64,000 nt of DNA. Origin: Desulfatiglandales bacterium. GTDB lineage: Bacteria > Desulfobacterota > DSM-4660 > Desulfatiglandales > Desulfatiglandaceae. The notes beneath the pieces were generated by a model. The model saw nothing but the letters and a program-made list of their open reading frames with translations. It ran no database searches and was not told where the DNA came from. Positions 3,162 to 39,358 of this stretch are shown here, one piece after another. How positions within the stretch are numbered: the first letter of the stretch is position 1; the number at the start of each line of letters is the position of its first letter. The stretch lies in NCBI GenBank assembly GCA_963662465.1, contig OY759599.1:2976001-3040000 (forward strand). The letters run 5' to 3'. A program made the translations under genes and the position numbers.

Positions 3162-3830
3162 ATGCGCAAAATTTTATGGATAATCCCATTGCTGACGGTC
3201 CTGATAAGTTCGCCTGTTTTGGCGGAAGACGCCCTTTCAGATATCCTTCAGGGGATTCAGAATCGTTATGGGCACACGTCAGGGCTTTCCGTTCCCTACA
3301 CCCGGGACGTCATCACCCGCTCCATGAGCCTGCTGGGGACTCAGGCCAAAGGGGATTTAGCATCCGGCGTCATTCACTTCAAATCCCCTCACTTTCTGAG
3401 GCTGGACCAGGAAATGCCGGCATCCGAAACCATCATTGCCAATGATGAGATTTTATGGTGGTACATCCCCGACAAAAAGGAGGCCCACCAGTACCAGGCG
3501 AAAGATTTCGGCAAGGAACTCAGGTTGCTGGGTGATATTTTCAGTGGACTGGCCGAGGTTAAAGACCGTTTTCAGGTACAATTACAGGAACCTGAGGAGA
3601 ATGGAGACTACAGAATTTTATTGACCCCCGATCCGCCCTGGCAGGAAATTGATCGCATCGCCCTCACCCTAAGCCCCGCATATGAAATCCGTTGCGTCCG
3701 GATTTTTAATGCCTTGGGGAGCGTCACCCGGTTCAACCTGGGCGATTTCACCCTGGGAAAAACCTTTGCAAAAGGCTTCTTTGAATTTGTTGCGCCGCCG
3801 GGAGTCAAGGTCATTCCAGAATCTTCTTAA
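3162..3830 (+). CDS. lolA: Outer-membrane lipoprotein carrier LolA family
   Basis: ATG at 3162 after AGGAGG (3151-3156); signal peptide; C-terminal F.F..P.GV.V; ftsK-lolA synteny. Confidence 0.85.
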   Translation: MRKILWIIPLLTVLISSPVLAEDALSDILQGIQNRYGHTSGLSVPYTRDVITRSMSLLGTQAKGDLASGVIHFKSPHFLRLDQEMPASETIIANDEILWWYIPDKKEAHQYQAKDFGKELRLLGDIFSGLAEVKDRFQVQLQEPEENGDYRILLTPDPPWQEIDRIALTLSPAYEIRCVRIFNALGSVTRFNLGDFTLGKTFAKGFFEFVAPPGVKVIPESS

Positions 3831-13290: not shown

Positions 13291-15063
13291 TTATGTAAAA
13301 ACAAAGATCAATACCAGAAAGAGGGTTGACACGCCGGCGCCGATGCCGATCGGAACCGTTCCCCCCATCATATCGGCATACAGGTTGACCTTTTTCATTT
13401 TCAACCGCTCTCCACGCACTCCCATCAACATCCAAAGACTCACCATCACAATCAGGCTCAGTCGTGCAATAATATCCCTTGAAAGGGTGGCAAGGGCGCC
13501 GGCAATTCCCTTAACAAAAACATGGTCGCAAACTCGGTTCAAACCGTTTAACAAACGATCAAAACCACGTGAAAAAAGCACCCCTCCCCTACGGTAAAAC
13601 CAGTCCGCATCCAGGTTGATGCAACGGATTTCAGCCGGGTATATGCCGGCCCGCAACAGCAGGGTAAAGGCCAGGGCCGAAAAGAAAAGGAGCTGGGTCT
13701 GCCCCACCACATGGGGCGCCGTGTAGGGAACATAGGCCACGGGATAGGGAAGCAACGCATACAGGGGGGCGGGATAAACACCGATAAAAATACAAAGAAA
13801 GGCCGCAATGCCCATGGCCAGGAGCATATGAATGGGCGCCTCTTTGGGCCGCAGGCCTGAATCATGGGAAAAAAAGGCAAAATAGGGAATCTTGATACCC
13901 GCATGATGAAACACGCCGGCTGAAGCAAAAAGCAAAATGAACCACACAATTCTCATGTGCCCGCTCGCGGCGGCATCCATCACCATGGATTTGCTCACAA
14001 AACCACTGAAAAGGGGGAAGGCGGAAATGGATGCGGCCCCCACCATGCAGAAAATACAGGTCAACGGCATGGTCCGGTAAAGCCCTCCCAGGTCCGTGCC
14101 GTTGATTTTCCCCGTCCGGTACATGACGGCGCCCATGGACATGAAGAGCAGTCCTTTAAACAGGATATCATTAAAAGCGTGGCAGACCGCGCCATTGATG
14201 GCCAGCGCCGTCCCGATGCCGATGCCGCACACCATAAACCCCACCTGGTTCACCAGGCTGTAAGCCAGAACCCGTCTCAAATCGTTTTCAATCACCGCAT
14301 AAAAAATGGGGAATCCCGTCATAACGGCCCCGATCCAAATGAGCGGCTCGGCGCCTGGAAAACCCCGTGCCAGGGCATACACAGCCACCTTGGTAGTAAA
14401 GGCGCTCAGAAAAATGGCGCCGGTAATGGTCGCCTCCGGGTAACTGTCGGTCAGCCACGGATGAAGGAGAGGCCACGCGCAGTTAAGACCGAACCCCAAA
14501 AAAATGAGATAGCTGCCGGGCCCGTTCAATCCCATATAATCGAATTGAATGGAACCGGTTTGATTCACATGGATCACGATGCCGGCCAGCAGGCACAACC
14601 CCCCTGCCGCATGAACCAGCAAATAACGATATCCCGATGCCAGGGCCGCTTCCGTACGGCGGGCCCAGATGAGGAAGATGGAAAATACAGTCAACATTTC
14701 CCAGAACACAAAAAAAGTGAAGAGATCACCGGCAAAAATCGCCCCAAGGGCGCTTCCGGCATAAAGAAGACCCGCCATCTGCTGAAGGTTGTCCTTGACA
14801 TGGAGAGCATAGAGGATGGCGATAAAACTGATGAGATGAAAAATATAGGCGAACAGCAGGCTGAGCTTATCCACCCTTCCCAGAACCAAATGGTAATCCA
14901 GGAAATTGATCTCAAAATGGGTTCCCTGCCCCAGAACCATCAGATTCAGGAAACCGATCACGGGAATCAGCAGCAGCCAGGCGCTTTTCAGACGTGCCGG
15001 GATAAAGGGCACCAGCAATGCGCCCACAACGAAGATGATCACCGGGGGAACGGCATCAGTCAT
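13291..15063 (-). CDS. mrpD: Mrp Na+/H+ antiporter subunit D-like (third copy)
   Basis: Proton-antiporter membrane domain (FWEM, PLLHPWLTDSYP, AFTTK); likely start MTDAVP at 15063. Confidence 0.85.
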   Translation of the reverse strand: MTDAVPPVIIFVVGALLVPFIPARLKSAWLLLIPVIGFLNLMVLGQGTHFEINFLDYHLVLGRVDKLSLLFAYIFHLISFIAILYALHVKDNLQQMAGLLYAGSALGAIFAGDLFTFFVFWEMLTVFSIFLIWARRTEAALASGYRYLLVHAAGGLCLLAGIVIHVNQTGSIQFDYMGLNGPGSYLIFLGFGLNCAWPLLHPWLTDSYPEATITGAIFLSAFTTKVAVYALARGFPGAEPLIWIGAVMTGFPIFYAVIENDLRRVLAYSLVNQVGFMVCGIGIGTALAINGAVCHAFNDILFKGLLFMSMGAVMYRTGKINGTDLGGLYRTMPLTCIFCMVGAASISAFPLFSGFVSKSMVMDAAASGHMRIVWFILLFASAGVFHHAGIKIPYFAFFSHDSGLRPKEAPIHMLLAMGIAAFLCIFIGVYPAPLYALLPYPVAYVPYTAPHVVGQTQLLFFSALAFTLLLRAGIYPAEIRCINLDADWFYRRGGVLFSRGFDRLLNGLNRVCDHVFVKGIAGALATLSRDIIARLSLIVMVSLWMLMGVRGERLKMKKVNLYADMMGGTVPIGIGAGVSTLFLVLIFVFT

Positions 15064-27287: not shown

Positions 27288-27458
27288 GTGATTCCCCCCT
27301 TTGCTTGTTTAGGCCCTACGGATTCATTTCATAGCTTTCTTTCAAACAGACCACATGATTTTCCCATATATTCTGAAAGCGTTCCCTTTTTTGTATCATT
27401 TCTTATCTCAAAATATAACCCATAAGTCAGTGAAACAAAACCGCTGCGAGACCATCAA

Positions 27459-28684: not shown

Positions 28685-29299
28685 ATGCTATTTGAAAAAA
28701 ATGAAAATATCTCAACGCTGGACGACGTTCTCAAATCGAGCTGGAGAACTCTCCATAATGGCGTTCAAAATTTCAGGCATCCGTTTCACAGACCAACCCT
28801 TACCACCATGGATGACGATAAACCCCAAGCACGGATTGTCATCCTGAGGGGGTTTTCAGAAAAAGACCGAACATTGATATGTCACTGCGATGCCCGAAGT
28901 CCCAAGGTTTCACAAATCCAGGATAATCCCAATGTAACCTGGTTGTTCTATCATCCTGAAAAATGGATGCAGGTGCGTCTTTCCGGAACCGCTTCGGTCC
29001 ATACCGACGATAAAACGGCTGAATCCCAATGGGAAAAGGTGCGCCTGACCCATCGCATAAACTACTGCGCCGAAATCCCGCCGGGTTCCCCCACGGAAAA
29101 ACCGACTTCAGGTCTACCGGGTTTGCTCCGCGATAAAACGACTAAACTGCTTAACCATCCGGAGGCCCGTAAAAATTTTGCCGCCATTGTCTGCCGATTT
29201 GATCAACTGGATTGGCTGCTGTTGAAATTGACGGGTCACATCCGGGCTAAATTTCATTGGGAAGATCATCGCGTAAACGCGTCCTGGGTAACCCCCTAA
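28685..29299 (+). CDS. Pyridoxamine 5'-phosphate oxidase-like FMN-binding protein
   Basis: PQARIVILRG, DARSPKV, QVRLSG, C-terminal WVTP. Confidence 0.85.
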   Translation: MLFEKNENISTLDDVLKSSWRTLHNGVQNFRHPFHRPTLTTMDDDKPQARIVILRGFSEKDRTLICHCDARSPKVSQIQDNPNVTWLFYHPEKWMQVRLSGTASVHTDDKTAESQWEKVRLTHRINYCAEIPPGSPTEKPTSGLPGLLRDKTTKLLNHPEARKNFAAIVCRFDQLDWLLLKLTGHIRAKFHWEDHRVNASWVTP

Positions 29300-29302
29300 G
29301 CC

Positions 29303-30514
29303 ATGACCCATACCCGACAAACTCCCAATCGCTTAATTTCCCTTGCCGCTCCCTGCATGGCCATCTTTTGGCCGGGAGTGTTTATTTTTGGATTCCCAGG
29401 CATAATGGCGCCCTACTGGCGGGAAACCTTTGATGTCGGGCGCGGTGAAGTTGGGCGGACCCTTTTCTTTTTGCTGGCTGCCGTGGGAACCTTCATGGTG
29501 GTATCCGGACAACTTCAGAAGCGGATAAGGCCCCGGAACCTAGTGCTTTTCGGATCTATTCTCTGTGGGTCGAGTATGTTTTTGGCCGGAGCCGCCAAAG
29601 GGATGTCCATGATTTATTTGTGGGCTTTTCTGACGGGAACTTCAGTATCCTTTATCCTCATCCCGGCACTTTCCATTGCACAGCAGTGGTATCCCGAAAG
29701 ACGTGGACTTGCCTCGGGTATGGTCAATCTGGCTTTCGGCCTTTCCGCTGCCGTAATGTCGCCGCCCATCGCTTACTGGATGAATGGCTTGGGTTATCTG
29801 AGGACGACGCAAATCCTGGGCGTTTGTGCCCTGTTGACGGGACTCGCGACAATCCCTTTTCTGCGACGCCCATCTTCGGCTTTCTTATCCGTCTCCGCAA
29901 AGGCGGGGCCTTCTTCAAAAAGCATGCATCCCCTGACCCTGCCGCAGATTCTGCAAACTCACAGTTTCTGGTGTATATGGCTGGTTTGGGGTTTTGCCGG
30001 AGCAGCCGGCATTTCCACCGTCACACTGTCCACCACCTTCGGCCTTGCCAGGGGCTTAACCATGGAAAAGGCCGTCCTGCTTTTGACCGCCTTTAATATC
30101 ACCAACGGCACCAGCCGGCTGATTACGGGTTATTTCTCCGATGCCGTGGGTCGCCGCCTGACCATGGGGATTACGTTTGCCATTGCCGGCGTAGGGTATG
30201 GGTTGTTGCCCCATGTAACGAGTTTAACCGCCTGGCTTGTCATAGCCGCCATGGTGGGTTTTTCCTTCGGAACGCTTTTTGCGGTTTCAGCACCCTTGAT
30301 TGTGGATTGCTTTGGGATGGAAAATTTCGGCACTGCATTTGGTATGGTTTTCACGGCTTATGCCTTTGTGGCCGGCCCTCTGGGACCCTGGCTAAGCGGC
30401 TATCTGCTGGACCATACATCCGGGGATTTCACCCTCATTTTTCATTACCTGGGAGTTCTCTGCCTTCTTTCCGCCTTTCTGGTTCGATATGTAACGCCAC
30501 CGAAGCCTTCATAA
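29303..30514 (+). CDS. MFS transporter, OFA-like
   Basis: About 12 TM helices, WYPERRGLASG, GYFSDAVGRR. Confidence 0.88.
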   Translation: MTHTRQTPNRLISLAAPCMAIFWPGVFIFGFPGIMAPYWRETFDVGRGEVGRTLFFLLAAVGTFMVVSGQLQKRIRPRNLVLFGSILCGSSMFLAGAAKGMSMIYLWAFLTGTSVSFILIPALSIAQQWYPERRGLASGMVNLAFGLSAAVMSPPIAYWMNGLGYLRTTQILGVCALLTGLATIPFLRRPSSAFLSVSAKAGPSSKSMHPLTLPQILQTHSFWCIWLVWGFAGAAGISTVTLSTTFGLARGLTMEKAVLLLTAFNITNGTSRLITGYFSDAVGRRLTMGITFAIAGVGYGLLPHVTSLTAWLVIAAMVGFSFGTLFAVSAPLIVDCFGMENFGTAFGMVFTAYAFVAGPLGPWLSGYLLDHTSGDFTLIFHYLGVLCLLSAFLVRYVTPPKPS

Positions 30515-30652
30515 CAGGCCCAACTTCATTAAACCCTCGGCATTTTTCAATGATGAACTGACCATAGACCACCAGCGTAAAAAGTTCGCCCAGATTGGCA
30601 TCCTTGGCATCCTTCATTTCTCAGTTTATATTTACGGGTTTCTCATCATTCC

Positions 30653-30667
30653 CCTGTGAACGGTTAC
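30653..30667 (-). repeat. Dispersed end motif (CCTGTGAACGGTTAC)
   Basis: Identical to 39107-39121 and reverse complement of 32109-32123. Confidence 0.85.
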
Positions 30668-30674
30668 CCCTGGG

Positions 30675-32054
30675 CTATTCGCTTCCTGATTCCAGCCGTC
30701 CGTACTCCCAAAGATTACACATGACCCTTGCAGCACGCTCCGGCGTGGCATAATTGACCAGCGCCCCCGCGTTTTCAAGCGCCTCGATCTGAGCGTCCCA
30801 GATACCCGGCGGCGCCAGGATGCAACTCACCACAGGCTTTTTCTGACCCCATTCCATCAGCAACCCGCTGATTCCCTTCAATGCCTCCACATTGGCGGAT
30901 GCAAACATCATCAAAAACAGAATGCCGTGGACCCTCTCATCGTCCATGACGGCCTGAACAATCCCCTTAATGGCGTCTGAATCATACCAGGCCGGCCCCA
31001 TATCCACCGGATTGGTGCGAAGGGCCAGGGGGGGCAACAGGTCGTTGATTCGGACTTGGGTTTCCCCGCCAAACCGAACGATTTCAATACCTTCCGATTC
31101 ACACACATCGCAGGCGGCCATGGCCGGGCCTGCCTGCCCTGACAGCACCGCCACCCCAGGCCCTTTGGCAATGGGGCATGAGGCCAGGGCCTTGGCCGTA
31201 TCCAGCAAGGCCTGTGTACTGTCAACGGTCAGGATTCCCGCCTGTCTGAAGGCGTCCGTGTAAATTTCATGACGTCCCGCCAGGGAACCCGTATGAGAAC
31301 GGGCCGCTGCGTCCCCAACCGTGCCGCTGCCCGTCTTGTAGGCCACAACAGGCTTTTTTCCCCGGTGACGGGAAGCGGCGGCCAACAGATCTTTGGGAGA
31401 ATCGAGACCCTCCACATAAAGGGCCAGGACCCTGGTATCCGGATCTTCCACAAGATAGTCCACCATTTCCGCAAAATCCACATTCAGCCGGTTGCCCAGA
31501 CCCACAATCTTACTGAAACCCACGCCATCACGCATGGCCAAAAATCCCAGCAGATGAGAAATCCCGCCGCTCTGGCTCACCAACCCGACCGCCCCCGATT
31601 TCAATTGAGAAAACTCCGGGGTAAAGGAAGCGTTCAGACTTGCCATCAGGTTTACCATACCGAATGTGTTGGGTCCGATAACGGGGATGCCTGCCTCATT
31701 GGCAATACCGGCCACTTTCTCGTGGAGTTTTGCGCCGGCCGGATCATCGATCTCTTTGAAACCAGCTGTAATCAGGACAATGCCTCGAACCTTTGCGGTC
31801 GCGCACTCCCTGAAGACTTCCGGGACCCGTTGGGCAGGCACCACCACAACCACAAGGTCAATGACATCCTGAACCGCTGTTACGGAGGGCCATGCCTTGA
31901 AACCGAAAATCTCCCCAGCCCCCGGATTGATGGGGATAACAACACCTTTGAATCCACCATTCACAAGGCTCTTCATCACATGAAACCCGAGTTTTGACGG
32001 GTTATCCGATGCACCGACAACCGCAACCGACTTGGGATTAAACAGGGCATGCAT
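30675..32054 (-). CDS. NDP-forming acyl-CoA synthetase alpha-type (CoA-binding) subunit
   Basis: FNPKSVAVVGAS, GPNTFG, SQSGG, SHTGSLAG phospho-His, NPVD; start MHALF after GAAGGAG. Confidence 0.88.
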   Translation of the reverse strand: MHALFNPKSVAVVGASDNPSKLGFHVMKSLVNGGFKGVVIPINPGAGEIFGFKAWPSVTAVQDVIDLVVVVVPAQRVPEVFRECATAKVRGIVLITAGFKEIDDPAGAKLHEKVAGIANEAGIPVIGPNTFGMVNLMASLNASFTPEFSQLKSGAVGLVSQSGGISHLLGFLAMRDGVGFSKIVGLGNRLNVDFAEMVDYLVEDPDTRVLALYVEGLDSPKDLLAAASRHRGKKPVVAYKTGSGTVGDAAARSHTGSLAGRHEIYTDAFRQAGILTVDSTQALLDTAKALASCPIAKGPGVAVLSGQAGPAMAACDVCESEGIEIVRFGGETQVRINDLLPPLALRTNPVDMGPAWYDSDAIKGIVQAVMDDERVHGILFLMMFASANVEALKGISGLLMEWGQKKPVVSCILAPPGIWDAQIEALENAGALVNYATPERAARVMCNLWEYGRLESGSE

Positions 32055-32108
32055 AACACAATCTCCTTCCTTCTCCATGAACATTTTTTGTCGGATATTC
32101 GATATCTT

Positions 32109-32171
32109 GTAACCGTTCACAGGGTGCAGTTGTCAGCCTCCTGCCCCCTGACAACCGCACCCTGCCCCCTC
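32109..32171 (+). repeat. End motif GTAACCGTTCACAGG plus heptamer hairpin
   Basis: agggtgcagttgtcag pairs with ctgacaaccgcaccct (one mismatch). Confidence 0.85.
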
Positions 32172-35146
32172 TAAACAGTTTCCCTGACCCTTGGAAAACT
32201 CAGCGTAAACGTACTCCCTCTCATTTCCCAACTCTTCACATGGATGCGCCCACCATCATTTTTCACAATCTCATTGCTGATGCAAAGCCCCAGGCCCGCC
32301 CCTTTTCCGGCTTCCCGGGTGGTAAAAAAAGGCTCAAAAATCCTTTCCAACAAATCCCCGGGGATACCGATTCCCGTGTCGGACACGGAAACCTTGACCC
32401 GGTTTTGTTCCGTAAAAGATCGGATCGCAATGAGTCGTCCCTTCATCTCCTCATCGGATCCTTTTCCGGCGATAATGGCCTCGCCCGCATTGGAAATCAG
32501 GTTGTACATCACCTGTTCCAGTCGGTTGGCGTGACCGAAAATCAGGGGAAGATCCTCGTCCGGATCAAAGGTCGCCCGAATATCATCCAGCGATAATTGC
32601 GGCCCGATGATGGCCAGGGTTTTTCGAATCACCTCATTGAGGTTAACCTTTTCTTTTTCAAATCCCCGCTTTTCTTCCAGCTCCGTGAGACGATTGATGA
32701 TAACGGCAGCCCGGTCCACCTGCCCGCTGATCTCGGTAGACACCTGCAAAAGATGGTCGTCCGGAACCCTTTCCTTTCGCTGGGCCATCATTTTCAAAAA
32801 CTCACTCCCCACTTTGATGGCGTTCAGCGGCTGGTTCAACTCGTGCGCAATGGCGGGAGAAATACCGCCCATGGTGGGCATGAGACGAAGCAGGTCCCAC
32901 GCCGTTACCAGTTCCACATGAAGCATGATCGCCGGCAGGATGAACAAAGCCCCCACCAGCGACGCCAGCATGGTGGCCACCATGAGAAGGCCAAAGACCG
33001 CCGTGGGATTAAAATGGGAAAAAATCAGCACGGAAAACCCCATGCTGATGGCCAGGGTGGTGAATATAATCGGCCTTCCCACCCCGCGAATGGTGTCCTG
33101 GAGCGCCCGGTCCTTGTTCAGGTCTTTCTTGAACTCGCGGTTATAGCGAAACAGGTAATGAATGGTATCGTCCACGGCCAGACCGATGGCAATGCAGGCG
33201 ATAAGGCTGGTGGCAACGGAGAGCTCAATCCCCAGCCAACCCATGAGCCCAAAGCTCACCACAATGGGAAAAAGGTTGGGAAGGATGGCCATGACCCCCA
33301 CTTTCACGGAAAGGAACAGGAGCGACATGGCGGCAATGATGAGGACCAGGGTCAGGGAGAGGCTTTTCACCAGCCCCCGGGTCAACAGGCGGCTGCTTTG
33401 TGAAATCACAATCCCGAATCCGGTCACATGGCATTCAAAATCCTCTCCGAAATTCTGTTGAAGATAATCCCCGATCTCCTCCTTCAACGCCAGGAAATCC
33501 CGTGAGCTGGAGATATGGGTCCGAAGCAGGATGTTAGCTTTTTTAAGATCCTCGTCCATAAACCGACTGAACATTGCCTGCCCCAGCATGGTCTTATAAC
33601 TGTTGATCAGCATACGAATTTCAAATGATTCCGATGGGATTACGTAGGCGTCCTTGTTGTATTGACTGGCGCCGTAATTCACCAACTTAAGAAAATCCAC
33701 CAGGGAAATGGTCTTGTCGACCCCTTTCCTGGCGCTCAGGAAATCCTGAATCTCCGCAATCTGCTGGAGATGCCCGGGGTCTTCAAAATAGCCGTCAACC
33801 CTTGAATTCAACACCACGTTAACCGGAAAACTGCCCGCTGTTTGCCGGGAAACGTCTTCAAAATGACGGCTGATGGGCGTATCCTTTTTGAAAAAGCCCA
33901 CGGGATTCGTTTCCACTTTTATCTGGAAAATACCGCAGAGCGCAACGATGGTCACCATGGAAACCGCCGGCAATACCTTTTTCTGGTGACGCAGGTTCAG
34001 TTGCATAATCCAGGCAAGAAAACCGTTGATAACGCCGCGCCCCTGTCGGGAATCCATCTTGGCCTTGCGGGGCATGGAGAGGATTGAAAGTACTGCCGGC
34101 ACCGCGGTCAGCATCATCACGAGCATGCTGAGCAGACCGAAACAGGAGAAAGCGGCAAACTCCCGAATACTGTTGATCTGGTTCAGCATGAGGGAGGCCA
34201 GGCCGATAATGGTGGTGACCACCGCCAGAACCGTTGGAAATCGGACCTGAATAAAACATAAATACACCGCTTCCCTGGAAGAATCCGCGTTCAGGGCCGA
34301 CGATCGATATTCGGAAAAGAGGTACATGCAGTACGCAGTGCCCACCGCAATGAGAAAAATGGGTACAATCATGGTCAGCAGGGAAAGCGGCCTTTGGGTC
34401 CAGGCCATCATGCCGAAAGTCCAGATCAATGCGGACAGGACGGCGCCGGTGGGGATCAATACGGATCTGACATCCCGAAACAGGCATAGGAGAACAATGG
34501 CCATCACCACGAAGGTGATGGGCGGCAGTTGCAGAAAATCCCTTTCGGTATAGGCGGCAAGGGCCTGGGAAACCAGCGGCATGCCGATCTGGTAAAGGGA
34601 AAGACCTTCATTCTCTTTTTGAAGTATTTTCTCAATGGCATCGATAATCGGCGCTTTATCGGATACGTCTTCCAGAATAACCGAAAAAATGGTGGTCTTT
34701 TGGTCTTCCGAGAGAAAATTCCGTTCGAAGAGTTCGATGGGAACGATGATTTCCTTGAATTCATCCAGGGACCATCGGGAAGTAAGATCCATATCCCGTT
34801 TGATTCCCGGAAGGCTCAGAACCTTTGTCACCCCTGGAATTTTTGAGATCTCGCCGGCAATGACGGCCAATCGCTGAAAGGTTTCCGGCGCAAAGACATT
34901 CTCGGCCTTTGCCGCCACGAGGATCATTTCCTCGCTGCCGAACATCTTTTTAAATTCGCGATAATAGATACTTTCCGGCAGGTCCCGGATGGCCAGATCA
35001 TAAATGGATGTCTGAAAACGAAGGTTCGGCAGCTTCGCAGCGAAAAGCAGGGTCGCCAAAACGATCAGGATCAATACCGGAACAGGATGTCGGATCACGA
35101 ATCGAAGTCGCCGGCCGGAATTCAATGTGCGAAATATGCCTGCCAT
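32171..35146 (-). CDS. MMPL/RND-family transporter fused to a C-terminal histidine kinase
   Basis: Two MMPL halves (GLAVDDTIH) then [33 protein letters not shown] in one 991-aa ORF. Confidence 0.88.
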   Translation of the reverse strand: MAGIFRTLNSGRRLRFVIRHPVPVLILIVLATLLFAAKLPNLRFQTSIYDLAIRDLPESIYYREFKKMFGSEEMILVAAKAENVFAPETFQRLAVIAGEISKIPGVTKVLSLPGIKRDMDLTSRWSLDEFKEIIVPIELFERNFLSEDQKTTIFSVILEDVSDKAPIIDAIEKILQKENEGLSLYQIGMPLVSQALAAYTERDFLQLPPITFVVMAIVLLCLFRDVRSVLIPTGAVLSALIWTFGMMAWTQRPLSLLTMIVPIFLIAVGTAYCMYLFSEYRSSALNADSSREAVYLCFIQVRFPTVLAVVTTIIGLASLMLNQINSIREFAAFSCFGLLSMLVMMLTAVPAVLSILSMPRKAKMDSRQGRGVINGFLAWIMQLNLRHQKKVLPAVSMVTIVALCGIFQIKVETNPVGFFKKDTPISRHFEDVSRQTAGSFPVNVVLNSRVDGYFEDPGHLQQIAEIQDFLSARKGVDKTISLVDFLKLVNYGASQYNKDAYVIPSESFEIRMLINSYKTMLGQAMFSRFMDEDLKKANILLRTHISSSRDFLALKEEIGDYLQQNFGEDFECHVTGFGIVISQSSRLLTRGLVKSLSLTLVLIIAAMSLLFLSVKVGVMAILPNLFPIVVSFGLMGWLGIELSVATSLIACIAIGLAVDDTIHYLFRYNREFKKDLNKDRALQDTIRGVGRPIIFTTLAISMGFSVLIFSHFNPTAVFGLLMVATMLASLVGALFILPAIMLHVELVTAWDLLRLMPTMGGISPAIAHELNQPLNAIKVGSEFLKMMAQRKERVPDDHLLQVSTEISGQVDRAAVIINRLTELEEKRGFEKEKVNLNEVIRKTLAIIGPQLSLDDIRATFDPDEDLPLIFGHANRLEQVMYNLISNAGEAIIAGKGSDEEMKGRLIAIRSFTEQNRVKVSVSDTGIGIPGDLLERIFEPFFTTREAGKGAGLGLCISNEIVKNDGGRIHVKSWEMRGSTFTLSFPRVRETV

Positions 35147-35161
35147 GGAAGTCCTTGTGGA

Positions 35162-35557
35162 TTAAGAGCCTTCATCACGCCCGGGTCCATTGCGCAGTAT
35201 TTCTTCGGCTCGGGTCAAAGCCGCATCAAGCGCTTCTTTCTGAACGGGCTTATGAATAAAATCCGTCGCCTTAAGATCCAATGCCTTTCCGGCCAGCTCC
35301 TTGTCCCCATGGCCCGTAATCACAATGACCACGGCGTCGGGGGAAAATATTTTGATCCGCTTTAAAACTTCAAAGCCGTCCATACCCGGCATTTTGATAT
35401 CCGTAAACACAATGCCGGGCTTTTCCTTTTCAAATACCCGTATCCCTTCTTCGCCGTTTTCGGCCGTCAAAACCTCGAAGCCATAGGCCTCCAGAAAAAG
35501 CCGAAACATGGCCAGGGTAGGTTTTTCATCATCAATAATCAAGACCTTCCGCATCAA
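35162..35557 (-). CDS. Single-domain response regulator
   Basis: IDDE, TDIKMPG, ITGHG, HKP; overlaps the stop of the upstream kinase. Confidence 0.92.
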   Translation of the reverse strand: MMRKVLIIDDEKPTLAMFRLFLEAYGFEVLTAENGEEGIRVFEKEKPGIVFTDIKMPGMDGFEVLKRIKIFSPDAVVIVITGHGDKELAGKALDLKATDFIHKPVQKEALDAALTRAEEILRNGPGRDEGS

Positions 35558-37476
35558 TTTCTCCTTAATGAATCCATCTGCGGCAATCGCACGACAAACG
35601 TGGTTCCGATCCCCGTTCCACTGTGTACACGAATATCGCCCCCATGCTCCACAACAATTTCATAAACGATCGCCAGTCCCAGGCCCATCCCCTTTCCCAC
35701 TTCCTTGGTGGTGAAAAAGGGCTCAAAAATCTTATCGCGGGCATCTTTTGATATCCCCGAACCGGTATCCGAAATAGCTATAACGATCTGGCCATTTTTT
35801 GAAAATGACCGAATGCCGATTCTGCCGCAAACCCTCTCGCCAATAGTTTCGCACTTTTGAACAATGGCGTCGCGCGCATTGGTCAGCAGGTTGAAAATCA
35901 CCTGTTCCAGGCGATTTTTGTGGGCCAGGACCGAAGGAATGTTTTTGCCTGGAAGAAACCTGAGATCAACATCCTGAAGCTTCAATTGCGGACCGATAAG
36001 CTTTACAACATTTTCAATAGGGCTGTTGATGGAGACCTCCTCCCTGCTGAAATCCGCTTTCCTGGCAAATTCCCGCAAACGGGTAATAATCTCGGATGCC
36101 CGGTCCACTTGGTCGCTCACCTGTCCTGCTACCTGGGCCAAGTCTTTCGTTGGAATCGCCCTGCCCTGTTCCACCATCAGGGTCAAAAAATCGCTCCCCA
36201 TTTTAATGGCATTCAACGGCTGATTGAGTTCGTGGGCAATGCCCGCGGACATTTCTCCCAGACTTTTCATTTTGCCGGCCTGAATCAACTGCGCGTCCTT
36301 TTCCATGATTTCAGTAATATCACTGGTGGCCAGAACGATCACGTCCCGGCCCTGATAAAGGCCCGGACAGGCCCGCACATTCACGTAGAAGGGCCGGCGT
36401 CCTTTCCGGTAATGCCGCGCCCTCGAACTCACCACGCAGACGCTGGCCATGGCCTTTTCCCCAAGGGTCTCGCTATTCCAGTCCCCATATTCAAAAACGC
36501 CCAGATCGCTGAAAGATCGACCGATCAGATCCTCCCTGGCGTACCCGTAGGTTTCAGCCGCGGCCAAATTGGCATCCAGAATCTCAAACCCCTTCCGGGC
36601 CACCACAAAAACGGGATTGGGGCCGCTGTCAAAAAGGGAACGGTATTTCTGCTCGCTTTCCTTGAGCTGCTCCCTGCCTGCCCTGAGAGATGCGGTCATA
36701 TGGTTAAAGGCGCCTGCCAGTTGCTCTATTTCATCGCCCCAATGGTTTTTGTAGACGTCGCTCTCACTGCCTGAAGCGGGTTCCGTCTCCAGATTGCCCA
36801 GACTGATCTCGTTGGCCCGTCGAATCAGTTCCCCCATGGGCCGGGTGATGTATCCGGAAAGCCAGTGGGCAATACCGAAAAAAATGAGAATAATAACGGA
36901 GATGAAGCCCAAGAATGTTATTCGAAGCCGACCTACAATTTCATCAATATACCCTTTGCTCAACCCTACATGGACGGCGCCGATTTGTGAAGCGCCCTCT
37001 TTCAAGGGAAACGTGATATCATAAGCGGATTCTTTGCCGAAAGAAAGCCGTTCGATACGGTGGGACCGTCCGGGACCGACCCGCTTGACCTGAAGCAACG
37101 CTTCGGGAAAACCACCGTCAAAGGTATGGGCCAGTACCTCTCCATCCTGGTCCAGAACGAACATGTAGGAAATCAGCGACTCCCGATTTCCAAGTCGGGA
37201 GGCATCAAAGAGCAATCGGTTTAAGGCATCCCTGTTCACTTTCAGGACATGGGCCTTGCTCTCCTCGGCAACGCTTTGTGCAATACCCACTCCCCGCTGC
37301 TCCATTCGCGTGATCAGGCTCGAAACCAGCACCCATCGCGCCACCAGAGCAATGCCGACACTGATCAGGAGAATCACGGCCACGGAGGCAAAAAATATTT
37401 TGTTTTTGTGGCTCAGCCGACGCAAAGATCCGAGGGACATCACAATGCCGCTGATGGCGTCCTTCATGATTTTCAT
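35554..37476 (-). CDS. Membrane HAMP-PAS sensor histidine kinase
   Basis: Two TM helices, periplasmic domain, [23 protein letters not shown]. Confidence 0.9.
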
Positions 37477-37492
37477 ATGGGGATATCCTTAA

Positions 37493-37594
37493 GCAATCGT
37501 TCACAGGGTTCAGTTGTCAGGGGGCAGTTGTCAGGGTGCAGAAAAATCAGCTTCGAATTTTGTCCTGCCCCCTGACAACTGCCCCCTGCCCCCT
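37493..37594 (+). repeat. Variant end motif plus inverted heptamer arrays
   Basis: gcaatcgttcac agggttc agttgtc agggggc agttgtc agggtgc ... ctgccccctgacaactgccccctgccccct. Confidence 0.85.
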
Positions 37595-37676
37595 ATAAAA
37601 TATACATAACGCTTCAAATTCAGGAGCAAAAAAGACATCTCTGGCGATAGAGAAAACCGGAAGAAGTACCTGTGAA

Positions 37677-38972
37677 TTATCCCCCGGAAGAGCCAATGAT
37701 TTGCATGGTCAGGACCTGCGTCGCAGCGCTGTCGATGCCGCCCACAGCGACGATATTCTGATCCCGCTGAATGGCCGCGGCTTCAGCCCAGTCATCTCCC
37801 TGCCCCAGGTTGAAGCTTGCCACACCGCCGTTACCGAAATCCTCATCCGCAACGCCATCGGCATCGTATCGCAAAACAAGGGCATCATAATCCGTGCCGT
37901 TGTAGGTATTGCCGGCCACGACAATCTCATCCCCCTGCTGAAGACACAGCCTTCGACCATTGTCGTTTCCAGTGCCGCCGTCATAAATCACCACCCCGTC
38001 CGTGCCAAACCCTGAATCCAGTGACCCGTCTGAATTGTATCTGAGAAGGACCACATCCAGATCACTCCCGTTGCTGTTGCTGCCCGACACAACGATTTTT
38101 CCATCTGACTGAATGACGATCCCCCGTGCGCCGGCATTTCCGTGCCCTCCGTCATATCGGACGATTCCGGCCGTGCCGAATGAATTGTCGAGGATGCCGG
38201 CGGCATCGTATCTTGCAGTCAGGAGTTCAAAGCCTTCATCCGTGCTGGTGTAGCCCGTCACAACCATTTTTCCATCCGACTGAATGGCCAGGTCGCGAAA
38301 TCCGTCGTTCCCCTTTCCACCTTCATAGGAGACAACCCCATTAAGCCCGAATGAATCGTCCAGGGAACCATCCTTTTCATATCTCAGGACCATAGCGATG
38401 GATGTTCCATCCCCCGTGCTTCTCGCCGTCACAAGGATACTGCCGTCCCCTTGAACCGCGATGGCCCGACCATAGTCATCCCTGCCGGCATTATCGTAAA
38501 GGACAATGCCGTCCGTGCCGAAAAATGGGTCCAAAGTTCCATTCGCATTCAAGCGCATGAGCAGCATGTCCACATCATTGCCGTTATGGGCATATCCCGT
38601 CAGGGTAATTTTGCCGTCCGAATCCACGACAACCAAACGCCCGCAGTCGTTTCCGTTGCCGCTGTCATAAATGAAAACCCCGTCTGTCCCGAAGGTGGTG
38701 TCCAGGGTCCCATCCGGGTTGTATCGCAAAACGCCTACATCCGAGTCCGTACCGTTCAATATTCCCGTTGAAACCAAAATCTTATGGTCCATTTGAATGG
38801 CCGTTCCCACATAGGAATCCTTGTTCCAGACCCCGTAGAGCGCATATCCGTCCGGAGCATTGAAGGTCGCATCCAGATCGCCCTGCTGCTTCCCGGTGGG
38901 ATTTGGATTGGATGAGGATGAACTGCAGGCGGACAAAACACAGAAAAAAATACAGAACAGCAGTCTCTTCAT
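37677..38972 (-). CDS. Delta-60 repeat (beta-propeller-like) lipoprotein
   Basis: Lipobox LSAC; about seven repeats of Q.DGKI...RY..DG.LD..FG..G. Confidence 0.88.
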   Translation of the reverse strand: MKRLLFCIFFCVLSACSSSSSNPNPTGKQQGDLDATFNAPDGYALYGVWNKDSYVGTAIQMDHKILVSTGILNGTDSDVGVLRYNPDGTLDTTFGTDGVFIYDSGNGNDCGRLVVVDSDGKITLTGYAHNGNDVDMLLMRLNANGTLDPFFGTDGIVLYDNAGRDDYGRAIAVQGDGSILVTARSTGDGTSIAMVLRYEKDGSLDDSFGLNGVVSYEGGKGNDGFRDLAIQSDGKMVVTGYTSTDEGFELLTARYDAAGILDNSFGTAGIVRYDGGHGNAGARGIVIQSDGKIVVSGSNSNGSDLDVVLLRYNSDGSLDSGFGTDGVVIYDGGTGNDNGRRLCLQQGDEIVVAGNTYNGTDYDALVLRYDADGVADEDFGNGGVASFNLGQGDDWAEAAAIQRDQNIVAVGGIDSAATQVLTMQIIGSSGG

Positions 38973-39094
38973 TATGACATCTCCTTCTAAAAATTAAGTG
39001 TTTCAAAGTCCTTAAACCTTTATTTTCGAATATAGTCCATAAGAAAAGCGGGAGCAAGGGAAAGGAGGAGTAGAATGTAAAAAGTCATATTGTC

Positions 39095-39121
39095 CTCTGC
39101 CTGCCCCCTGTGAACGGTTAC
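39095..39121 (-). repeat. End motif CCTGTGAACGGTTAC with residual heptamer
   Basis: ctctgcctgccccctgtgaacggttac. Confidence 0.85.
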
Positions 39122-39357
39122 GAAATCTCAAAGGAGATCTCGAACAGGGTCCACAGGGGGGTAACCATGATTAAAGGCAAGGGGGGGGGGGGGGGTATTC
39201 GGGCCGGGACATTCAGGTCCTGTACACGGTCATTGCCTTCCAGGAACTGCCGCGCCTGAAAAGGATTGCCCGGGATATTGACCCCAATGTCTTTATGGTG
39301 GTCACGGACACCCTGGAAGTCATGGACATCCGCATCGGGAATCAGCCCCACTGGTGA
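39122..39357 (+). pseudogene. C-terminal (DUF2179-like) fragment of a YitT-family protein
   Basis: EISKEISNRVHRGVTMIKGKG|YSGRDIQVLYTV..ELPRLKRIARDIDPNVFMVV; frame broken at a G15 run (39181-39195). Confidence 0.75.
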
Positions 39358-39358
39358 T

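Follow-up and report, generated by a model that had tools for sequence, protein, structure and literature searches.

Dispersed end motifs around a signalling module in a Desulfatiglandales genome are IS66-type miniature inverted-repeat elements and their probable deletion scars

Introduction

Insertion sequences (IS) of the IS66 family follow a rule of GTAA ends. For ISDge4, of the ISBst12 group, the available text of its description gives ends GTGACTACTCAGCA/GTAACTGCTCAGCA and an 8-bp repeat (PMC12898284); the Paracoccus IS66 elements ISPpa5a and ISPpa7 are listed with 8-bp repeats in the accessible part of another report (PMC3281130), and clusters of elements of the MITE type (miniature inverted-repeat transposable elements) are described in the accessible part of a third (PMC10969869). 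Here we examine a 64,000-bp stretch of a Desulfatiglandales bacterium (the window; contig OY759599.1, positions 2,976,001 to 3,040,000), in which a 15-bp motif occurs at 30653–30667 (minus strand), 32109–32123 (plus), 37493–37507 (plus, 2 mismatches) and 39107–39121 (minus). A sequence-only reading had proposed that inverted pairs of this motif bracket gene modules as the cargo of a candidate new mobility system. That candidate is removed by the present analysis. The four copies are, with high probability, separate IS66-type MITE relics and deletion scars; the genes between them were not carried, and the match of the ends to IS66 suggests a transposase acting in trans.

Results

The motif ends a dispersed family of short elements

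The window belongs to a complete genome of 8.16 Mb (G000), which has a 91% identical sister genome (G010). Genome-wide, the motif has 15 exact 15-mers and 81 near copies (at most 2 mismatches), and a 12-base core has 50 exact copies, 25 per strand. Among 692 inward-facing pairs within 60 kb, 12 had flanks agreeing at 7–8 of 8 bases. Eleven pairs in this group are 80–256 bp apart, one being a 185-bp copy of the family found in the window, and the twelfth, a 55-kb pair with 2-mismatch ends, was counted as chance. Across all fetched loci, a 7/8 flank match was reached by 14 of 32 distinct short pairs and by 0 of 7 long pairs.

Two main families share the same end: family A (~242 bp, 39 loci by BLAST) and family B, that of the window (185–210 bp, GGKGCAG/TTGTCAG arms, 38 loci by BLAST). 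Their 228–256-bp and 185-bp copies, respectively, have terminal inverted repeats on a short non-coding element. Three filled sites in G010 (L208 of family B; L218 and L241 of family A) have empty counterparts in G000 that carry the 8-mer once. The motif is the terminal inverted repeat of an 80–260-bp non-coding MITE family that duplicates 8 bp of its target. The proposal that it marks the terminal sites of a non-autonomous element, one that would need a transposase in trans, is supported; empty sites were found for the short MITEs, but for neither 32109–39121 nor 37493–39121.

Records titled Nitrospirae, Pontiellaceae and other deltaproteobacteria also contain family B, and the MITE family thus crosses phyla; of the 209 genomes of the class, 8 have it, and 7 of these belong to this genus. 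We found no plasmid matches to the element. The 21 matches in viral contigs include 2 short paired elements that have 8-bp duplications; a related transposase is present in none of the 21. The family is apparently undescribed in the literature within our search, to which subscription papers and ISfinder were out of reach. The same or a related end also caps other bodies, namely repetitive extragenic palindrome (REP)-like hairpins and CACAGAG repeats (G000:C1:711427, 827398 and 2661091–2661190; L404 and L412). Several of these copies have 8-bp duplications, so such IS66 ends have acquired several kinds of repeat.

The ends match single-gene IS66 elements

One of the PF03050 loci in the genus, L124, is a complete element: its 1,546 bp hold a single 469-aa open reading frame (ORF; PF03050, DUF6444, zf-IS66), and it has ends GTA(A/T)CCGATCACGGGG and a perfect 8-bp duplication. 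We examined 51 metagenome and 9 genome relatives of L124. Several end in GTAACCGATCACAGGGT, which agrees with the 32109 end at 16 of 17 bases, and a few carry T at the differing position; the ends of L141, L152, L158 and L163 show 1 mismatch over 16–17 bases. An end shared with a single-ORF PF03050 element, together with the 8-bp duplication, identifies these as IS66 (ISBst12-like) ends. A match to a known IS end had been named beforehand as refuting the idea of a new system, and such a match, to IS66/ISBst12 at up to 16/17 bases, is what emerged.

Because the ends match single-gene IS66 elements, an IS66 transposase likely moved these MITEs in trans, as insertion polymorphism and end identity both suggest. 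The MITEs are not IS66 insertion sequences proper, as no DDE transposase of their own lies between the ends. No paired GTAA-type ends surround the 10 PF03050 matches of the genome. Its only single-ORF candidate is a two-copy, 1.96-kb IS66-like element (554 aa; G000:C1:6318494–6320453 and 1412244–1414205) with ends GTATCCTATTCAA, one copy having an 8-bp duplication; since these ends match less well, it is only a possible driver.

REP elements and their associated tyrosine transposases (REP/RAYT) are recognized by a GTAG/GGAG tetranucleotide and a hairpin, with no terminal repeats or 8-bp duplication. We considered a REP/RAYT identity and ruled it out on the terminal repeats and duplications; REP-like hairpins do lie next to some other ends elsewhere in the genome.

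Collapsed and solo copies in the window

Shuffles of the window gave a mean of 0.83 motif matches, none reaching 5, against 5 observed; the fifth match, at 14950 with 3 mismatches, is at chance level. All four copies reported earlier were recovered with their positions and strands. Heptamers GGKGCAG/TTGTCAG adjoin three of them, as had been noted, 30667 being the exception (the two minus-strand copies are named by their outer tips, 30667 and 39121). The interval contains the following features.

30538–30596, minus strand: acyl-CoA dehydrogenase gene remnant, 59 bp; intact in G010 and G005
~30597–30652: body of the 30667 end, a different dispersed repeat of ~55 bp without heptamer arms
30653–30667, minus strand: solo terminal inverted repeat of IS66 type, its tip 8 bp away from the stop codon of the CoA ligase
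30675–32080, minus strand: acyl-CoA synthetase (CoA-binding) gene, here "CoA ligase", outside both neighbouring ends
32109–32182, plus strand: collapsed family-B MITE, 74 bp, its left end perfect and its heptamer arms forming a hairpin
32171–37476, minus strand: signalling module of MMPL/RND-histidine kinase, response regulator and Cache-HAMP-PAS kinase
37493–37605, plus strand: collapsed family-B MITE, ~113 bp, with a worn left end, both heptamer arms and a decayed right tip
37677–38972, minus strand: delta-60/DUF5122 beta-propeller gene with a putative N-terminal lipoprotein signal
39090–39121, minus strand: solo right end of a family-B MITE, tip exactly at the yitT break
39122–39358, plus strand: yitT 3' fragment, frameshifted

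All four motif copies are collapsed or solo forms of the MITE. The 32109 and 37493 copies have worn partner ends of their own, at 74 bp and ~113 bp, which the sequence-only reading had overlooked, and fold at −40 and −61 kcal/mol, values computed without a shuffle control. The worn right end of 32109–32182 overlaps the stop codon of the MMPL/RND-histidine kinase gene; this copy resembles a short one at G000:2078648, and the counterpart site in G010 has no element. The 37493–37605 copy retains a few bases of the start of a four-helix-bundle gene. At the 39121 end, 22 bp show no difference from the right terminus of the intact 185-bp copy, and the 30667 end is absent from the matching G010 site. 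A Pfam scan of 12 ORFs confirmed that no transposase or recombinase lies between the ends, a linked recombinase being one mark, beside a dyad site with spacer, of a site-specific recombination cassette. Promoter and terminator scans of 30400–32300 stayed at shuffle level, and Rfam returned only sub-threshold miRNA hairpin matches.

The signalling module is not cargo

Of the 8 same-genus genomes with a signalling module, 7 have the CoA ligase next to it; the exception, G005, keeps only an 86-bp trace of the ligase, and no module was seen in G001 and G008 (75 and 80% complete). Given this adjacency, 32109 is not a module boundary. Gene order across the genus indicates that the CoA-ligase/RND-kinase junction is ancestral and the signalling module vertically inherited rather than carried. 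As the gene order of the module is shared by related species, the motif copies are mostly ordinary mobile-DNA debris.

The bracketing of the 7-kb module by inverted pairs did not survive, as the left junction is ancestral and no target duplication stands. If 32109–39121 were nonetheless a 7-kb cargo element with a worn target duplication, its perfect 15-mers would form a proper left/right inward pair, as they do, and its flanks, matching at 6 of 8 bases, are the best of the 7 long pairs. However, 136 of 5,524 unrelated end pairs (2.5%) reach the same level, and the two flanks differ in origin: the left flank of 32109 aligns with G010 DNA upstream of the CoA ligase, whereas the right flank of 39121 is yitT coding sequence. 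For neither 32109–39121 nor 37493–39121 did we find a target duplication, an empty site or another location in relatives. The model is largely refuted by the junction conserved in 7 relatives, and we regard it as extremely improbable.

Delta-60 and the broken yitT gene

The delta-60 gene is patchily distributed, with close matches in 1 of 10 same-genus genomes. That relative is in G005 (65% aa identity); it sits immediately upstream of the acyl-CoA dehydrogenase gene that survives as remnants in the window, and no element ends are near it. As the sequence-only reading had noted, the 39121 end abuts a truncated yitT, and it does so with base precision: 39122, the first base beyond the end, opens the fragment, which duplicates the intact yitT at G000:2724566–2725453 at 92% identity.

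A smaller mobilization, in which the 37493 left end and the 39121 right end brought delta-60 into a surplus copy of yitT before deletions removed the left flank, would account for the proper left/right inward pair, the base-precise tip within yitT and the patchiness of delta-60; MITE-flanked cargo is also known (PMC10969869). Yet the 37493/39121 flanks match at only 1 of 8 bases, the left flank of 37493 is kinase upstream DNA and not yitT, and the yitT 5' half, which had been expected next to another motif copy, was found beside none. In G005 delta-60 sits in the same neighbourhood without ends, which counts against it as cargo, and two long inward pairs in G010 (5.7 and 3.9 kb) are independent MITEs with colinear flanks. 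We therefore hold such a transfer to be quite improbable, and favour separate insertions at 37493 and 39121.

Two further observations concern yitT and its surroundings. At 39180–39195 a G run 8 bases longer than in the intact yitT shifts the frame, which could reflect decay or a read error. An ATP synthase operon extends from 39359 to ~44700, and the 3' end of the G010 operon adjoins three genes that in G000 lie beside the intact yitT at 2.72 Mb; a rearrangement thus joins the two yitT sites.

Solo ends and gene loss

Three solo ends (7261723, 39121 and 30667) fit one pattern, in which the DNA adjoining the tip is preserved and that on the body side is missing. At G000:7261723, a 52-bp right end occupies the place of 2,081 bp that in G010 include a 668-aa gene, and the two genomes are homologous again from the tip onward. 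The 5' part of yitT is gone at 39121, and at 30667 an acyl-CoA dehydrogenase gene is reduced to 72- and 59-bp remnants. Solo ends likely arise by insertion followed by a deletion that runs from inside the hairpin through the other end, the simplest route to the pattern. Because they mark the loss of yitT, acyl-CoA dehydrogenase and the 668-aa gene, solo ends would be useful markers of recent genome erosion in the lineage.

The two dehydrogenase remnants (27316–27387, 72 bp; 30538–30596, 59 bp) lie 3 kb apart, and the remainder of the gene was not found in G000. At 28685–30514 lie a pyridoxamine-oxidase-like gene and an MFS gene that G010 lacks at the corresponding site. The oxidase has only 83% identity to a G010 copy elsewhere and the MFS gene has its best match in another genus (86%, G323), which suggests an outside origin. 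We also considered the solo end at G000:2820673, beside a former neighbour of the CoA ligase, as the mark of an old break; G010 is colinear there, so this was rejected.

A gutted four-helix-bundle gene forms the family-B body

In family B the right arms lead into MKFEDL, whole or decayed, and PF05635 has a match within a family-B element of G041 (profile 1–47, E 6e-10). An intact close relative at L383 (81% over 47 aa) has the same GGKGCAG arms and no IS66 end. Taken together, these observations make the family-B element look like IS66 ends joined to a heptamer-armed four-helix-bundle cassette that was then gutted. By direct reading of the sequence, the 14-base end core GTAACCG-TTCACAG is in register with the 7-base arms. 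IS66-type ends occur in 0 of the 12 closest relatives of the gene; an end-like 12-mer is present in 3 of 52 PF05635 loci, none with an intact gene between two perfect ends. At L340 an intact gene lies between family-A arms with worn ends. The gutted PF05635 gene with its heptamer arms is the only passenger found. Long tandem arrays of a 105-bp unit of GTTTTGG/GTTTTGA heptamers stand beside four-helix-bundle genes at G000:C1:86282–88975 and 8147984–8149128.

Synteny breaks and the local cluster

We took all 52 G010 sites with an exact 11-mer, which made 47 tests once pairs were merged, and mapped their flanks on G000, with 75 intergenic gaps from 18 arbitrary 20-kb stretches as a control; the break classifier is crude and the comparison covers one genome pair. 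The 37 ends of families A–C comprised 27 colinear, 4 break and 6 unmapped cases, and the control gaps 42, 11 and 22, giving break rates of 4/31 versus 11/53. Ten ends of no clear family, outside the main count, gave 4 colinear, 3 break and 3 unmapped; including them, the rate is 7/38 versus 11/53. In the reverse direction, 12 regions around G000 family-B ends were fetched and 6 compared with G010 (3 colinear, 3 in unshared DNA), and four further G000 sites are colinear with G010. The supposed link of the ends to synteny breaks was thus not seen, the ends being not enriched for them.

Several results weigh against independent insertion by an IS66 transposase as a full account. Family B alone shows 2 breaks in 7, a sample small enough to leave room for a modest excess. 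Within 8.5 kb lie four of the 28 family-B loci; this local cluster, which arose in 1 of 20,000 uniform simulations, needs more than independent insertion to account for it. For three of the four window copies the junction is not the same as in G010, and a target duplication is lacking at all four. Only 5 of 16 IS copies with both ends have a perfect duplication, and even the IS with the nearest ends differ from these at one base, an exact match having been found in none. The nearest, L124-type, transposase has no tblastn match in the complete G000 genome, which leaves the driver putative. At the kinase/CoA-ligase junction occupied by the 32109 copy, G009 carries a family-B MITE of its own, oriented alike (C127, ~3298–3400), and G004 a family-B remnant (C3, ~1839150–1839230), while the closer G010 has none; these junction copies in G000, G009 and G004 may reflect an old shared insertion, a recurrent target or a kept hairpin.

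The cluster could reflect local hopping, a tolerant plastic region or hairpin-driven reshuffling. In the last case, hairpins and shared arms would have reshuffled the neighbourhood without a transposase, making it a local recombination or deletion hotspot, a possibility compatible with our preferred explanation. In its favour are the non-random cluster, the two truncated genes that abut solo ends in the window with a third case at G000:7261723, and the folding of the collapsed copies, itself without a shuffle control. The sequence-only reading is favoured by the cluster, by the exact start of the yitT fragment at the 39121 tip, by the three copies at junctions unlike those of G010, and by the gene upstream of the kinase, which is a different one in 7 of 8 relatives. 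Breaks are nevertheless not in excess at ends genome-wide, whether the main count or all 47 tested ends are taken, and G010, which lacks ends there, shares or likewise shows the older breaks that flank the CoA-ligase/signalling block on either side. Cause and effect may also run the other way, with a plastic region simply tolerating insertions. A local hotspot is possible but on balance doubtful: the part of that idea that stands is the non-random cluster, and the part that falls is a genome-wide excess of breaks.

A fuller scheme would join these strands. In-register capture of the four-helix-bundle cassette would have produced a passenger-carrying non-autonomous element, whose shrunken copies paired over kilobases and shuffled delta-60 and yitT, and the junction copies in three species would be a kept regulatory hairpin. 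The register of end core and arms fits such a scheme, which we think improbable.

Discussion

The feature is real and of a known kind, namely IS66-type MITEs and their deletion scars. An IS66 transposase acting in trans would have inserted the MITEs, duplicating 8 bp; four separate insertions lie in the window. Two of these (32109 and 37493) are now collapsed hairpins. At the two solo ends (30667 and 39121), a deletion starting inside the element would have removed the other end together with the neighbouring gene (acyl-CoA dehydrogenase and the 5' part of yitT, respectively). The interest that remains is modest: an apparently undescribed family that crosses phyla, its gutted four-helix-bundle body, and solo ends as markers of gene loss.

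The comparisons that follow use the accessible parts of the cited reports. Like the single-ORF ISBst12 group of IS66 (ISDge4, PMC12898284), the window family has GTAAC-type ends of ~14–17 bp and an 8-bp duplication; unlike that group, it lacks a transposase, measures 74–260 bp and has 7-bp repeat arms that the autonomous elements lack. It resembles bacterial MITEs (PMC10969869) in being small and non-coding, with many intergenic copies, terminal repeats, target duplication, clustering and gene inactivation, but differs in that its body derives from a passenger gene (a four-helix bundle) instead of a transposase that has decayed. Mobile insertion cassettes, MITE-flanked composites and passenger-carrying IS66 elements (tIS66, ISPa75; PMC3281130, PMC12888890) place IS ends around a non-transposase passenger, as in family B; unlike in those cassettes, no intact passenger between perfect ends was found here, and the window genes between copies have not moved as a unit. 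Genes of PF05635, the 23S rRNA intervening-sequence protein, that have heptamer arms share the N-terminus MKFEDL and, at L383, the same GGKGCAG arms; in the window family, by contrast, the gene is gutted and capped by IS66-type ends.

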